Of a DNA stretch of 49,939 bases, positions 1 to 49,939 are shown one piece after another. Where the stretch lies: the NCBI GenBank assembly GCA_003597955.1, contig QZJU01000012.1:1-49939 (forward strand), read 5' to 3'. Position 1 is the stretch's first letter. Each line of letters opens with the position of its first letter. The position numbers and the translations under genes were made by a program. Below the pieces are notes generated by a model. It was given only the letters and a program-made list of their open reading frames with translations, was not told the origin of the DNA and made no database searches. This stretch comes from Candidatus Parcubacteria bacterium (GTDB lineage: Bacteria > Patescibacteriota > Patescibacteriia > PEXW01).

Positions 1-96
1 GCTCCTTTACTTCAGGAGCTATCGAGTGATGTTTTTTCATATGCCCATACGTTAATTAGTCTAGACCGTCGTGTCTAGTATATGGGGGTCAGTACA
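1..96 (-). mobile_element. IS3-family-like insertion sequence, left end (IRL and start of orfA), truncated by window edge
   Basis: Exact reverse complement of 49843-49938. The minus strand starts TGTACTGACCCCC (IS3-type 5'-TG end), and ATG at 40 reads MKKHHSIAPEVKE, an OrfA-like N-terminus. Confidence 0.75.
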
Positions 97-455
97 GACT
101 GAAAAATATAATTCGGCATTCCGTGAGCTCCCCGGGCTATTCTAAAGGCGGTCAGTGAACCCAGAGTCGCCAGCAGGACAATAAGAAAAATTGCCGCAAT
201 GGCTGAAGCAATAGGCGAGGTCCATTTTTGCGGAACAAAGGCAAACTCCAGACCAGCCAGTATCGGGAATGGATTTGTGGGTATGCCGGGCACGATGTTG
301 CCAATAAAACTCAAGATTATTAGTCCAGCTAAAAACCAAGGCGTTTCTAATATATTTACCAGAGCGTGCCTAAACTCCGGGAAAATAATCAGGCTTAGAA
401 GCCAGGGTAGATACAACCAGGTACAGGTTTTTGAAAGCTTGTCCAAAAAACTCAA
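97..455 (-). pseudogene. VTT/DedA (TVP38-like) membrane protein, 3'-truncated by the IS
   Basis: Hydrophobic ORF with PGIPTNPFPILAG and ATLGSLTAFRIAR motifs. GGAGG precedes TTG at 455. The ORF's last residues (VLTPIY) are encoded by the IS end. Confidence 0.55.
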
Positions 456-24316: not shown

Positions 24317-25576
24317 ATGTTCAAAAGATTTTTTTTGACCAATGGGGTCAAGGTTCTAATATCACCGCTTAAAGAAACCCAGGCCGTAACGGTCATGGCC
24401 ATTGTTAAAGTTGGTTCAAGATACGAAAATATTAAATTGAACGGCGCCTCGCATTTTATCGAGCACATGATGTTTAAGGGCACCCGGAAAAGGCCTGACA
24501 CCTTAACTTTAACCAAAGAGCTTGACGGCATCGGGGCAGAGTACAACGCTTTCACTGCCAAAGACCATACGGCTTATTACATTAAGACCAACCGTTTCCA
24601 TGTCGATTTGGCCTTGGAGATCCTTTCGGACATGCTGGTTAATTCCAAATTTGACGAAAAAGAACTTAATCGAGAGCGGGGCGTGATCATCGAAGAAATC
24701 AATATGTACGAAGATAATCCTATGGTTTTGGTGGAAGATGTTTTGGAAGGCGGTTTGTACGGCGATTCTCCTTTGGGCCGAAACATCGCCGGGACTAAGT
24801 CTGGCATAGCCAAAATGGACCGCCGAGAAATGCTGCGCTTCAAGGACCAATATTACATTGGCCCAAACATTTGGTTGGTGATTGCCGGTCGCGTGCCGCC
24901 TAATATCAAGAGCCTAGCCGAGCGCTATTTCCGGCTTATGCCAAAACAGCCGAGCTCGCCGATTTTTCAAAGACAGAAAAAGCTGAACGCCAAACGCGTG
25001 CATCTGAAATTCAAAAAAACCGAGCAAGTGCATTTAATAATCGGTGGTCCAGCCCTGCCTTATGCCGACCGGAACCTTACGGCCTTGTCCGTGTTGTCCA
25101 CCATGCTCGGCGGCACCATGAGTTCCAGACTGTTCATTGAGATTCGAGAAAGAAGGGGATTGTGTTATTTTATTCGAGCTTCGTTAAGCCCCTATCAAGA
25201 CCTAGGGCACTTTCAGATCCAAGCGGGCTTAGATAAAAACCGAATTAGCGAAGCCATCCCGGCCATCCTGGGTGAGTTGCAAAAGATGCGCAGAGGCGAA
25301 TTCAGAACTGAAGAACTGAACCGGGCCAAAGAGTATATGAAGGGCAAATTCATTTTGGATTTGGAAGATTCGGAAAATTTGGCCGGTTGGCTCGGCAAGC
25401 AGGCATTGTTTTTGCCGGAAATTAAGACGGTTAAAACTCGGTTGGCCGAAATTGACCAAGTCACTTCAGCAAAGGTGAAAAAATTAGCAAAGACCATTTT
25501 TCAGCCTCGGCGATTTCATTTGGCGGTTATTGGTCCGTATAGGCAGGAAAGGGCTTTTCTTAGGTTTTTGCCCTAA
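24317..25576 (+). CDS. M16 (pitrilysin-family) zinc metallopeptidase
   Basis: HFIEH inverzincin motif, NAFT, ERGVIIEE and SSRLF..IRE..GL.Y motifs. Confidence 0.94.
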   Translation: MFKRFFLTNGVKVLISPLKETQAVTVMAIVKVGSRYENIKLNGASHFIEHMMFKGTRKRPDTLTLTKELDGIGAEYNAFTAKDHTAYYIKTNRFHVDLALEILSDMLVNSKFDEKELNRERGVIIEEINMYEDNPMVLVEDVLEGGLYGDSPLGRNIAGTKSGIAKMDRREMLRFKDQYYIGPNIWLVIAGRVPPNIKSLAERYFRLMPKQPSSPIFQRQKKLNAKRVHLKFKKTEQVHLIIGGPALPYADRNLTALSVLSTMLGGTMSSRLFIEIRERRGLCYFIRASLSPYQDLGHFQIQAGLDKNRISEAIPAILGELQKMRRGEFRTEELNRAKEYMKGKFILDLEDSENLAGWLGKQALFLPEIKTVKTRLAEIDQVTSAKVKKLAKTIFQPRRFHLAVIGPYRQERAFLRFLP

Positions 25577-47724: not shown

Positions 47725-48618
47725 ATGCTTTTTGATTGGATTACCCTGGGCATTTTTGCAGTTTGCGTGATTGTTTGCGCCGTAATCATTTGGCGCAAAC
47801 TGCCGGCTTTGGCCAGCATTCGCATAGACGCCATTCCAAAGCATCAGCAGGCTGCGCAAAAGCAGGCTCTGCTTGATAAAAGGTTGCAAACCAAACTTGG
47901 CAATTTTGAGGCCCGTATTGTAAGGGGGGTTGAGATGGTTTTTGGGCAAGCTTTTAAATTTTTTAAAAATTTAATTTTGCGCCTAAAAAGGATGGAAAGC
48001 GAATATCGACGCAAGGTGATTACCCAGCAGGCTTTGGACAATCCGGATGTTTTGCGGGCGAAAATCGTAGCAACTTTAAATCAGGCGCAAACCGCCTTAA
48101 ATCAGGGTGACTTGGCCCAAGCCGAACAATTTTTCGTAGATGTTGTAAGTATGGATGCTAAAAATCTTGACGCCTACATTGGCATGGCAGATATCGCGAT
48201 TGCTAAGAAAGATTACGGCAATGCTCGAGAAGCTCTGAATTATGTATTGAAGGTGCAAAAAGACAGTGAGGCCGCATATTTGCGCTTGGGTCGCATCGCG
48301 ACTGATGAAGGCAAACTGACCGAAGCCGAAGCTGATTTTTTGACTACGGTTTCTTTGAACGCGACTACAGCCAGTGCGCATTTTGAACTAGCTGGCATCG
48401 AAGAAAAACTTGGGAATCTAGAAAAAGCCGAAAAGGCTTTTGGGGAGGCAATAAAATTAGAACCGGCAAATCCTAAATACCTGGACGGCCTTCTACAATT
48501 TGCTATAAGACAAAAGAATAAAACCTTGGCTAAGAAATCTTTAGCTAAATTATCCAAAGCAAATCCAGAGAACCAAAAATTGGCGGAGTTATCCAAAGAA
48601 ATTGAAAATTTAGGTTAA
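47725..48618 (+). CDS. Membrane-anchored TPR protein
   Basis: N-terminal TM and about five TPR-like repeats (AY..LG, A...F..AI.L.P). Confidence 0.85.
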   Translation: MLFDWITLGIFAVCVIVCAVIIWRKLPALASIRIDAIPKHQQAAQKQALLDKRLQTKLGNFEARIVRGVEMVFGQAFKFFKNLILRLKRMESEYRRKVITQQALDNPDVLRAKIVATLNQAQTALNQGDLAQAEQFFVDVVSMDAKNLDAYIGMADIAIAKKDYGNAREALNYVLKVQKDSEAAYLRLGRIATDEGKLTEAEADFLTTVSLNATTASAHFELAGIEEKLGNLEKAEKAFGEAIKLEPANPKYLDGLLQFAIRQKNKTLAKKSLAKLSKANPENQKLAELSKEIENLG

Positions 48619-48623
48619 TCTAC

Positions 48624-48771
48624 GCCGATGTAGCTCAGCTGGTAGACCTGCTCGCCTGTCGCCGGGCGCCGGGATAGCTCAGTGGTAGAGCAACTGTTTT
48701 GTAAACAGTAGGTCGGAGGTTCGAATCCTCTTCCCGGCTCCAGGCGATCGGCAGGCGGGGCAACTGTTTTG
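48624..48771 (+). pseudogene. Interrupted 5' fragment of tRNA-Thr(UGU): 48624-48646 plus 48760-48771
   Basis: The joined pieces give GCCGATGTAGCTCAGCTGGTAGA+GCAACTGTTTTG, equal to tRNA positions 1-35. No 3' half follows. Confidence 0.6.
48668..48742 (+). tRNA. tRNA-Thr(UGU)
   Basis: Full cloverleaf: acceptor GCCGGGA/TCCCGGC, anticodon arm ACTGT-TTTGTAA-ACAGT, TTCGAAT T-loop and encoded CCA. Confidence 0.95.
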
Positions 48772-48832
48772 CCTCCCTTGGGGGATGCCCCGGAAGGGCA
48801 ACTCCGGGTTGTTTAAAAAATTGTTTACATAC

Positions 48833-48870
48833 GCCGATGTAGCTCAGCTGGTAGAGCAACTCCATGGTAA
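48833..48870 (+). pseudogene. Orphan 5' half of tRNA-Thr(GGU), ending at the anticodon loop
   Basis: GCCGATG-TA-GCTCAGCTGGTAGAGC-A-ACTCC-ATGGTAA, followed by non-tRNA sequence. Confidence 0.8.
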
Positions 48871-49000
48871 TAAACAGGTCCCCGGCAAAAGAGACAAAAT
48901 CAGCTAACCACAGCCAAGAATCACCGCGAAATGCCATGAGATGGACCTACTCCATCCCAAAGTGGGCCGCGGGCTTCTCAAAAATCATCGTGTACCGTAC

Positions 49001-49273
49001 GCCGTTGTAGCTCAGTTGGTAGAGCAACTCCATGGTGGGCCGCACGCCCCGCCCACGGCCAGGGAAACCTGGTCGTGAATCCCGAATGACGGTCAAAGTC
49101 CGGCAACCCGGATCAGACCGTGGCGCTATCTCAAGCGCCCGAACGACTGACAAGGGGAGCTAACCCCGAAAGGGAAGCTCAAGATACAGTCTAGCCCGCT
49201 TATAGGCTACAAGCCGAAGAAGCGGTGTAAGCGAAGGAGTAGGTCGCCGGTTCAATTCCGGCCAACGGCTCCA
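49001..49273 (+). tRNA. tRNA-Thr(GGU) with intron; exons 49001-49036 and 49234-49273
   Basis: The spliced product is a 76-nt cloverleaf: GCCGTTG/CAACGGC, ACTCC-ATGGT^AA-GGAGT, GCCGG-TTCAATT-CCGGC, CCA. Confidence 0.9.
49037..49233 (+). ncRNA. Group I self-splicing intron (197 nt, no ORF)
   Basis: 5' exon ends in U and the intron ends in G. P4 ACGGTC/GACCGT, P5 TCCGG/CCGGA, P6 GGCGC/GCGCC, P7 GACTG/CAGTC with AAGATACAGTC S-element, P8 GAGCT/AGCTC. Confidence 0.88.
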
Positions 49274-49275
49274 GG

Positions 49276-49308
49276 GAAAAGTACTGCAACGAACTTGCAG
49301 TATTTTTC
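49276..49308 (+). terminator. Terminator-like hairpin after the tRNA
   Basis: GAAAAGTACTGCAA-CGAAC-TTGCAGTATTTTTC. Confidence 0.65.
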
Positions 49309-49321
49309 TAATCCCACACCT

Positions 49322-49842
49322 ATGGACATTTCAACCGCACTTGATAAGTTCTGTGATTATTCTCAGTTCATGCGGGGATATTCGCGAGATACTATAAAAC
49401 GCTATCGAGGGACTGTGCGATTGCTTCAGCGGTTCCTACACGTCCGCCAGCTCGAAGAATGCACCGAGTCTAGGGTTCGAGAGTTCTTTTATCACGGCAG
49501 GCAAGTTCAGCATTGGGCACCGAATTCATTCATTACATACCACAAGTCGCTCGCTGTCTTTTTCAGGTGGTGTGTCGACCAAGGCTACATGCACACAAAT
49601 CCAACCGACGACATGGAAATGCCCAAGACCGAAAAGAAGCTGCCGCCAAAGCTGACCAAGCAGGAGGCCTTAAAGCTACTGGAGATCGTTTACAATTATC
49701 CGTATCCGTACACCTACCAGCGATACCGGAACTATGCGATCTTTGCCACCTTCGTGTATGCGGGATTGCGGAAGAGCGAATTATTGCGCCTCAAAATGGT
49801 CGATGTCGATCTTGCGAATCAATCCATCTATATTCATCAGGG
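49322..49842 (+). pseudogene. Tyrosine recombinase/integrase (XerD-like), interrupted by the IS
   Basis: SAM-like N-domain (GYS..TI..Y, FFRW, NP), LP..LT..E, R..A and YAGLRKSE.L.L...DVD (catalytic Arg box). Breaks off into the IS end before the HxxR/Tyr box. Confidence 0.85.
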
Positions 49843-49939
49843 TGTACTGACCCCCATATACTAGACACGACGGTCTAGACTAATTAACGTATGGGCATAT
49901 GAAAAAACATCACTCGATAGCTCCTGAAGTAAAGGAGCA
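49843..49939 (+). mobile_element. IS3-family-like insertion sequence, left end (IRL and start of orfA at 49899), truncated by window edge
   Basis: Starts TGTACTGACCCCC, is the inverted identical copy of 1-96, and encodes MKKHHSIAPEVKE. Confidence 0.75.

Follow-up and report, generated by a model that had tools for sequence, protein, structure and literature searches.

Background

Which gene supplies tRNA-Thr(GGU) to a bacterium whose own gene for it breaks off at the end of the anticodon loop? This question is raised by the right-hand end of a 49,939-nucleotide (nt) stretch of Candidatus Parcubacteria DNA, called the window here, where an orphaned tRNA 5' half is followed by a complete, intron-containing tRNA gene and by a tyrosine integrase. 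We consider it very likely that what we see here is the left end of an integrative island in decay. The family to which it would belong is common in Patescibacteria, and its members measure 7-14 kb and bring with them two recombinases as well as defence genes. An earlier note on this DNA had described the orphan 5' half, a gap of 130 nt, an intron-bearing tRNA of a different allele and a tyrosine integrase, and all of these are present within 1 nt of where it had placed them. It had further proposed that the element breaks the host tRNA-Thr(GGU) gene in its 7-nt anticodon loop and complements it with a complete gene of its own, and this proposal is borne out by the comparisons presented below.

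The window is the entire contig C19 of a metagenome bin (0.99 Mb, 21 contigs, 46% GC, 98.5% complete). Hereafter, G numbers designate genomes, G000 being the genome of the window, and L numbers designate extracted loci.

Results and discussion

A host tRNA gene cut in its anticodon loop

The features of the island end and of the broken host gene are the following.

48833..48870, forward strand: orphaned 5' half of the host tRNA-Thr(GGU) gene (positions 1-38), with the same sequence as the start of the intact G003 gene
48864..48870, forward strand: common core ATGGTAA, equal to the anticodon loop, crossover region, with a second copy at 25501..25495 of contig C10
48871..49000, forward strand: island left arm, exactly 130 nt, starting with TAAACAGGTCC, a junction motif conserved across the family
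49001..49036, forward strand: exon 1 of the island tRNA-Thr(GGU), ending ..ACTCC ATGGT (ARAGORN with its intron option, splicing in silico)
49037..49233, forward strand: group I intron, 197 nt, between tRNA positions 36 and 37 (alignment and covariation)
49234..49273, forward strand: exon 2 of the island tRNA-Thr(GGU), AA GGAGT ... CAACGGC T CCA (ARAGORN with its intron option, splicing in silico)
49282..49307, forward strand (hairpin listed on the reverse strand): terminator-like hairpin and T-run between the tRNA and the integrase
49322..49842, forward strand: integrase 1, a tyrosine recombinase of XerC/D-like build, first 173 codons (Pfam)
49843..49939, forward strand: left end of a multicopy insertion sequence (TGTACTGACCCCC...), up to the contig end, common to 5 contig ends

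The host 5' half reads GCCGATG...ACTCC followed by ATGGTAA, and is then continued by TAAACAGGTCC in place of the 3' strand of the anticodon stem; together with the adjoining left arm of the island it forms the left attachment site (attL). As the window is a whole contig, the far end of the island was sought on the other contigs. A blastn search of the whole assembly with the 3' exon region gave a 41-nt match on contig C10, where the host 3' half occupies 25501..25457 on the minus strand. In the orientation of the window, C10 25531..25457 reads ...GGGGCCATTG ATGGTAA GGAGTAGGTCGCCGGTTCAATTCCGGCCATCGGCTCCA, so that the missing 3' half predicted by the earlier note (GGAGT..TTC..CATCGGCTCCA) does exist in this genome and is preceded by a duplicated core.

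The two halves belong to each other. The acceptor strand of the C10 half is CATCGGC, versus CAACGGC in the 3' exon of the island, and it is the partner of the orphan GCCGATG: the pair A5-U68 fits the 5' half to the C10 half, the intron-bearing gene having U5-A68. Because the C10 copy differs at the acceptor in such a way that it pairs with the host 5' half, it is not a duplicate of the island 3' exon. Joined once through the core, the halves give a tRNA-Thr(ggt) that is letter for letter the intact gene located just after the TPR gene of G003. The intact, intron-less gene that the earlier note had expected in island-free relatives is indeed found at the same place in G003, G009 and G010, which share the order Thr(GGU), Thr(UGU), Trp. 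More generally, of the 60 relatives searched, at least 30 (hand count) have 5' and 3' matches that abut, and thereby an uninterrupted intron-less gene. The flanks agree as well: to the left lies a TPR gene (stop at 48618) with the gene order of the relatives, and to the right of the C10 half come rpmG and a tRNA, much as in the relatives (in G002, Thr(UGU) stands before rpmG). The same 5' half, junction and spacer were also found in G001 (83% identity) and G005 (96%).

As the host gene is cut within its anticodon loop and each junction has a copy of the 7-nt loop, the locus bears the mark of site-specific recombination over an overlap of 7 bp. As judged from these comparisons, all the DNA between the two junctions is foreign.

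G002 was first a candidate for an empty site and was set aside. Its intact tRNA-Thr(GGU) gene (L020 1720-1840) has the island-type acceptor GCCGTTG and lies in an inverted-repeat cassette with a perfect 13-bp inverted repeat (CTCCCGCCACCTC / GAGGTGGCGGGAG); the clean empty sites are those of G003, G009 and G010.

The island arm and the replacement tRNA

In conventional tRNA islands and prophages, which Williams is said to have described in 2002, a tyrosine integrase reportedly uses an overlap in the anticodon loop with the symmetric stem as likely binding site, and the attachment site of the element (attP) is said to carry the 3' part of the tRNA and to rebuild the gene. Here, by contrast, four of the five stem positions after the core are mismatched in TAAACAGGTCC, and attP is devoid of the 3' part of the tRNA: the island site shares with the host gene the 7-nt ATGGTAA and an AGGTC at matching spacing, and nothing more. 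Since only the loop and this AGGTC are shared, integration leaves two dead halves. A motif resembling TAAACAGGTCC occurs a second time within the left arm (AAAGTGGGCC, approximately 48961-48970).

The complete tRNA gene of the island (49001-49273) has the acceptor GCCGTTG/CAACGGC and an insert after GGT. When this insert is cut out after U36 and after its terminal G, a canonical 76-nt tRNA-Thr(ggt) results. ARAGORN detects the gene only with the intron option and, as it places the splice site 2 nt off, mislabels it as Arg(gcg). Run by default, ARAGORN, like Rfam at its gathering score, detected in this region the neighbouring tRNA-Thr(UGU) alone. Over the 21 contigs, the island tRNA is the sole Thr(GGU) gene listed by ARAGORN, the other Thr genes having the anticodons tgt and cgt. 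The hairpin behind it stands at the same place in the relatives inspected, as far as can be seen by eye, and a promoter scan of 48550-49400 returned no sigma-70-like site.

These data suggest a mechanism in the following steps. (i) Integrase 1, alone or together with recombinase 2 (described below), would exchange strands within the 7-bp loop. (ii) Integration has split the host gene into the 5' half of the window and the 3' half of C10. (iii) The tRNA-Thr(GGU) of the island, 130 nt inside its left end, would replace the lost host gene, (iv) its intron presumably splicing itself out to leave a working tRNA. (v) The enzyme of the island itself, or a second island, would recombine any island tRNA identical to the target, which the family may avoid either by the intron or by a changed stem.

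A group I intron in the anticodon loop

The structure of the intron was built by hand, because Rfam Intron_gpI gives it only 11.7 bits. We aligned 11 homologous inserts of 191-235 nt, seven of them island-borne and four from genes at the native position, drew P1-P9 with a P3/P7 pseudoknot, and counted the pairs on the alignment, with shuffles and slid partners as controls. Pairing holds in 94.2% of 548 cells, and 25 of the 50 pairs show compensatory change, located in the P1 extension, P2, P5, P6, P8 and P9; P3, P4 and P7 are invariant and for this reason carry no covariation information either way. None of 500 shuffles reached any of these measures, and sliding the partners reduced pairing to 28-47%. 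The U-1.G of P1 (pair 8-29) and the G as last intron base are both present in 11/11 sequences.

G017, G019, G031 and G040, in which no integrase orthologue was found, hold this intron too, each in a tRNA-Thr(GGU) gene that stands at its native position just behind the TPR gene. Joints across the intron present in sequence runs were also considered as a possible spliced product and rejected: they have other letters between the two sides and represent intron-less tRNAs of other organisms.

A decayed copy of the island

Integrase 1 matches Phage_int_SAM_4 (E 3.6e-11) and positions 3-61 of the Phage_integrase model. What remains of it is the SAM-like domain and the start of the catalytic domain, without the catalytic K, HxxR, H and Y, whereas full-length orthologues carry R..K..HxxR..H..Y. 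At 49843, the left end of the insertion sequence (IS) breaks the gene at codon 174, and an uninterrupted, 96%-identical copy in the wastewater run X3 goes on with ..QGKGSKDR exactly at 49842/49843.

On C10, approximately 190 nt to the left of the right attachment site (attR), lies a stump of about 63 C-terminal residues of a second recombinase. It was examined as the possible C-terminus of integrase 1, a candidate that was rejected since the second recombinases of complete islands match it better (G252 58.6%, G306 54%, G283 46.5%). To the left of the stump come a GC-rich open reading frame (ORF) tail and then the same IS end. In the congener G001, the same island has also been wrecked by the same IS family, at other positions, its integrase 1 being cut at a different codon.

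With integrase 1 cut by the IS and recombinase 2 reduced to a stump in connection with the IS, the island can no longer move. To judge from these remains, the G000 island is dead, and its intron-bearing tRNA presumably now does the work of the destroyed host gene.

The IS itself appears as TGTACTGACCCCCATATAC... at 5 contig ends and as TGTCAAGACCCCCAAAATTAAGACAC... at 8 contig ends. Its ends were located at window positions 1-110 and 49843-49939, on C4, C10 and C13, and at 8 further contig ends; its interior was not found in the bin. This IS accounts for much of the fragmentation of the 1-Mb assembly. The ORF tail between IS end and stump (C10 26100-26242, minus strand, …LRHSLYALTERAGSTLKDFEPLLDRHDGRP*) has a GC content of 65%.

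A family of islands in Patescibacteria

Using the full-length integrase of G041 as query and at least 44% identity as the definition of an orthologue, we found integrase orthologues in 15 of 401 genomes of the class. In 12 of these 15, the layout is the one described above: host 5' half with (A/T)TGGTAA, arm, tRNA-Thr(GGU), integrase. Among the remaining three, G270 has an intact tRNA, the integrase and an identical copy of the 3' half at the far end, with no 5' half; nothing can be read from G027 and G302. Complete islands, which span attL to attR (7.15-13.6 kb), number eight and have the same core at both junctions, attR consisting of an arm followed by ATGGTAA and the host 3' half. A second tyrosine recombinase was found 4-13 kb downstream of the integrase in 10 genomes.

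The cargo of the two annotated islands (G041 and G146) comprises SIR2_2, HEPN_AbiU2, SocA_Panacea, DUF4145, DUF4238 and Schlafen AlbA_2. Neither of these two complete islands contains phage or conjugation genes. A phage origin was rejected, as IMG/VR holds no close relative (best match 28% identical).

Two wider collections were also searched. The GTDB set of one genome per species yielded 139 integrase relatives, of which the best 80 loci (55-74% identity) were examined; these are mostly from Patescibacteria, with some records labelled Bacteroidota, Ignavibacteria, Myxococcota and Bacteriovoracaceae. tRNA-Thr(GGU) adjoins the integrase in 44 of the 80, and 33 have the orphan 5' half as well. 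In other loci of this set the integrase stands beside Lys, Phe, Ala or Met tRNAs. From the JGI and ENA metagenomes 270 relatives were obtained, and the split-and-replace layout is present in 37 of the best 80 loci. The survey of integrase homologues suggested by the earlier note has therefore recovered the arrangement of 5' half, tRNA and integrase many times over (12/15, 33/80 and 37/80 in the three sets).

Several loci bear on mobility. The left end of the island is more similar to that of G000 in G005, a member of another genus (96%), than in the congener G001 (83%). In the wastewater run X3, a single 43.8-kb contig with a depth of 94 covers 48864-49842 at about 96% identity, and to the left of the core it reads ...TTTTCCGTCATGGGGCCATTG, the right arm of the island as at attR of G000 and G005. 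Since right arm (GGGGCCATTG), ATGGTAA and left arm are joined on this one contig, the attP form exists as one piece of DNA. Two tandem islands joined by an attP-like junction are found in G089. In a Parcubacteria record (L117 1360-1965, PKTK01000006.1), two 5' halves stand in a row ahead of an intron-bearing tRNA, the order being host 5' half, arm X, 5' half of the intron-less tRNA of X (stem CTACC), arm Y, intron-bearing tRNA of Y and integrase.

Further loci were noted in passing. After one island of G248 there are two tRNA-Thr 3' halves with different stems (L067 10230 and 12412), which suggests an older insertion beneath the present one. Niastella populi, a cultured member of the Bacteroidota (L132 1575-2000, NZ_LWBP01000002.1), has a palindromic attP-like site, GTGTTTA ATGGTAA TAAACAC, followed after about 110 nt by an intron-bearing tRNA-Thr(GGU) and an integrase of the family, with no orphan 5' half; a search of its 8.6-Mb genome for an intron-less Thr(GGU) loop with 3' stem found none, although a single degenerate pattern was used, which is not proof of absence. 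Finally, in L092, L097, L103, L116, L138 and others, family integrases lie 100-130 nt downstream of tRNA-Lys genes, and a partial copy of the first ~22 nt of the tRNA (..ATAGCTGTTTTGGTAG..) is found approximately 72 nt upstream (37 nt in L116). These loci hint at a branch that targets another tRNA at another position within it.

Does the intron protect the replacement tRNA?

The earlier note had held that the intron removes the core from the DNA of the island tRNA, which could then not be re-targeted. The first part stands: the intron separates ATGGT from AA by 197 nt, and there is in consequence no intact stem-loop-stem site in the DNA. The intron is not an essential part of the system, as the replacement tRNA is intron-less in 29 of 67 classifiable islands, about 4 in 10. 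For this count, we retained loci in which both the island and the host anticodon stems are readable and removed those with identical integrases. We tentatively propose, with chances that we put slightly below even, that the family escapes re-targeting by one of two means, an intron or a changed anticodon stem.

The comparison of stems points in this direction. Of the 38 intron-bearing islands, 26 have the same 5-nt anticodon stem as the host, and of the 29 intron-less ones none does (raw Fisher 1e-9). In a first set of loci, all 24 intron-bearing island stems were of host type and only one of 15 intron-less stems occurred among host stems (hand count), the intron-less ones being mostly GC-rich, e.g. 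TCGCC, CCACC or ACGCC. A tree of the 67 integrases requires no fewer than 15 changes of intron state, and the two kinds of island are accordingly thoroughly interleaved. The nested case of L117 supports the existence of the risk, as an intron-less replacement tRNA was there hit by a second island. Loci that have tRNA and integrase without a 5' half (G270, L112, L180) would be the expected product of recombination between the half and an identical island tRNA.

The main alternative takes the island as real and the intron as a passenger: intron-bearing tRNAs would have been captured from, or gene-converted by, hosts that hold the intron, and intron-less ones would represent an older foreign lineage. 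We regard this as quite possible, while leaning against it. It accounts easily for the intron at the native position in four genomes with no integrase orthologue and for the 29 islands that manage without one; in addition, group I introns are frequent in the tRNAs of metagenome-assembled phyla, at 0.49 per genome (Williams 2020, bioRxiv 10.1101/2020.01.27.920355), and the paired tree test given below is not significant. It has more difficulty with the stems, since none of the 29 intron-less islands shares the host stem despite at least 15 switches, and every intron-less switch with a non-host stem needs explaining. The hand count of 1/15 and the hit on the intron-less tRNA of L117 also speak against it.

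Returning to escape from re-targeting by intron or stem, and to the island that it presupposes, we collect here the observations that weigh against them. On the tree, a paired test gave 7 usable pairs, of which 3-6 behave as predicted and 0 are opposed (median p 0.125, range 0.03-0.25), and is underpowered; with 38 rows, the same test gave p 0.25. The broken core, the stems and L117 fit a protective role of the intron, which this non-significant test does not demonstrate. Twelve of the 38 intron-bearing islands differ from the host stem anyway, and some intron-less stems are a single base pair off the host (L082, L094, L136), which may not block the integrase. The attP arms (e.g. CCATTG / TAAACA) are unlike the tRNA stem. 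The intron at the native position without an integrase may be a simple passenger. The match of the intron to Rfam Intron_gpI (11.7 bits) is below the threshold of 50, with E 4.2 and shifted coordinates; the seed of that model consists of 12 sequences, not one of them bacterial (Williams 2020, bioRxiv 10.1101/2020.01.27.920355). No RNA runs containing the stretch were found, and we thus infer splicing and use of the tRNA. As to the island itself, the attP-type junction of X3 could stem from a tandem array instead of a free circle, the remainder of integrase 1 was not found in the assembly by tblastn, and the junctions of C19 and C10 lie on different contigs that both end in the same IS end and are not connected in the assembly.

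A broader scenario can also be put forward, which we consider rather unlikely as a whole. The intron would permit a stem-loop identical to the target to remain uncut by the integrase of the island or of a rival, and without the intron the stem would have to diverge. Recombination between the 5' half and the 5' exon would leave an intron-bearing gene at the native position, and the islands would act as vectors that seed tRNA introns through Patescibacteria and make the invaded locus immune.

Alternative explanations for the locus itself

The locus could also be read as a conventional tRNA island, in which the intron-bearing tRNA is the host gene (attL) and the upstream 5' half is an unrelated relic, for instance of a local duplication. 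In textbook islands a tRNA is followed by an integrase and, at the far end, by a 3' half, an order that G270 displays with no 5' half. The earlier note had named a copy of the island 3' end marking a conventional attR as grounds for refuting its reading; these grounds fail, as C10 carries the 3' half of the host gene. The orphan 5' half and this C10 half, both with ATGGTAA, fit each other and not the intron-bearing gene, and relatives with an empty site hold one gene identical to the joined halves. Moreover, spacer and tRNA travel with the island (96% between genera, and joined to the right arm in X3), and with the intron present the loop is unusable as a crossover site. We judge this reading very improbable. 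It is harder still to credit that the contig end joins different populations, with halves from different organisms: although the bin is a metagenome assembly of 21 contigs and both junctions are less than 1.1 kb from contig ends that stop in a repeat, the same junctions were assembled independently in G001, G005 and dozens of public records, and the flanks match the gene order of relatives (TPR gene on the left, rpmG and tRNA on the right).

Relation to known systems

The closest known system is tRNA-dependent lysogeny, in which the attB used by a tyrosine integrase lies within a single-copy tRNA gene and the lysogen survives only with the cognate tRNA that the phage supplies (Guerrero-Bustamante and Hatfull, mBio 2024, PMC10865867). 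As the phage core measures 8-17 bp, the tRNA is not rebuilt. The phages concerned include Fionnbharth, Cluster L, Gaia and Gordonia CQ2/DL, and the Lactobacillus prophage Lj965 is cited as a likely case outside Actinobacteria (PMC10865867). The principle of integration by disruption and complementation, which the earlier note had inferred, had already been published under this name.

The islands resemble this system in their tyrosine integrase, single-copy tRNA target, short core (7 bp versus 8-17 bp) and element tRNA of the same anticodon, and in both cases close relatives exist that rebuild the tRNA (G270 here). They differ in several respects: (i) they are small defence-gene islands with two XerC/D-like recombinases and without the lambda-type arm-binding domain, whereas the known system consists of temperate phages; (ii) they occur in Patescibacteria and some other phyla, insert into tRNA-Thr(GGU) with a core that coincides exactly with the anticodon loop, and are known from sequence alone; (iii) the replacement gene lies directly inside attL and holds a group I intron in 38 of the 67 classifiable islands. 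Introns in the element tRNA and self-targeting are not mentioned in the accessible part of PMC10865867, where the word 'intron' occurs only in the reference list. As the islands are not phages, one defining feature of tRNA-dependent lysogeny fails, and we class them as a variant that works like it.

The classical group I introns of bacterial tRNA genes are those of Leu(UAA), fMet, Arg(CCU) and Ile(CAU). The number of known settings has since been raised from 4 to 21 (Williams 2020, bioRxiv 10.1101/2020.01.27.920355). The intron described here is like these in its length of about 200 nt, absence of an ORF, place in the anticodon loop, U-1.G, terminal G and P3-P9 core with pseudoknot. Compared with the text of Williams 2020, as distinct from its settings table, it differs by its host gene Thr(GGU), its insertion after loop position 5, its location on a mobile island and its 11.7 bits on Intron_gpI.

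Two lines of archaeal work are related. In Caldiarchaeum subterraneum, a tRNA-Thr(GGU) 5' fragment lies upstream of a recombinase insert, accompanied by an intron-containing tRNA-Thr(GGU), and a mobile element was proposed to account for the fragment as well as for the gain of the intron (Sugahara et al. 2012, PMC3293823). That organism is an archaeon with protein-cut introns, the order is fragment, recombinase, tRNA, and in the part of the article that was accessible no logic of a complementing gene and no att core is defined. Randau and Soll hypothesised in 2008 that introns and split tRNA genes guard against integrating elements (as cited in the accessible part of Kanai 2015, PMC4390854). 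In that hypothesis, as in ours, an interruption of the anticodon loop abolishes the site of recombination without loss of RNA function; it concerns archaeal host genes, whereas here the protected gene would be the element's own and the intron is a bacterial ribozyme.

A literature search, which did not cover supplements, found nothing on such islands in Patescibacteria or on introns in replacement tRNAs borne by elements. What is new here is the host range and type of element, a core that coincides with the anticodon loop, the two recombinases and the ribozyme intron in the replacement tRNA, together with the relation between intron state and anticodon stem.

Neighbouring tRNA genes and other repeats

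From 48300 to 49939, the order of features is: end of the TPR gene, 26-nt fragment, tRNA-Thr(UGU), 5' half, arm, island tRNA, hairpin, integrase, IS. Two of them are neighbours and no part of the island.

48621..48646, forward strand: 26-nt tRNA 5' fragment (TACGCCGATGTAGCTCAGCTGGTAGA), a 26/26 direct repeat of 48830-48855
48668..48742, forward strand: complete tRNA-Thr(UGU) with an imperfect inverted repeat around it (76.3 bits)

The 26-nt direct repeat brackets a segment of 183 nt that contains the complete tRNA-Thr(UGU), and after this gene comes GCAACTGTTTTG, which matches positions 24-35 of a Thr(UGU) gene. Most probably, the fragment represents the shell of a resident Thr(UGU) gene in which a substitute gene is nested, as in G002, an arrangement that we deduce from these matches. 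In the relatives, Thr(UGU) stands downstream of Thr(GGU), and here it stands upstream, so that its place has changed, perhaps through recombination between the shared 26-nt copies.

On C10, at about 25003-25073 of the minus strand (L002 734-804), Rfam detects a tRNA (55.6 bits) that was missed by the ARAGORN run on the whole genome. By its position after rpmG, it is probably the tRNA-Trp that seems to be missing from the genome. A second repeat family was seen at contig ends C5_L, C6_L, C7_R, C12_R, C18_L and C20_R, where it always starts right after a hairpin and T-run (TTTTTTCTAATCCAGGAAACCCCGCACGG...); class C group II introns typically insert directly behind terminators.

Conclusions

With the islands described here, integration by disruption and complementation reaches beyond actinobacterial phages and takes in a large family of small islands with defence genes. 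For annotation, the consequence is that genomes of this kind seem to be devoid of tRNA-Thr(GGU) unless intron-aware tools are used, and that orphan halves are open to miscalling. The family is a natural data set for an old idea, now testable, namely that a recombination site is lost when an intron interrupts the anticodon loop, and Niastella populi could serve as a laboratory model. It also suggests a plausible way in which group I introns could have come to be spread so patchily among tRNA genes. In ultra-small bacteria with a minimal set of tRNAs, the host becomes hostage to the tRNA of the element, even after the death of the element itself.

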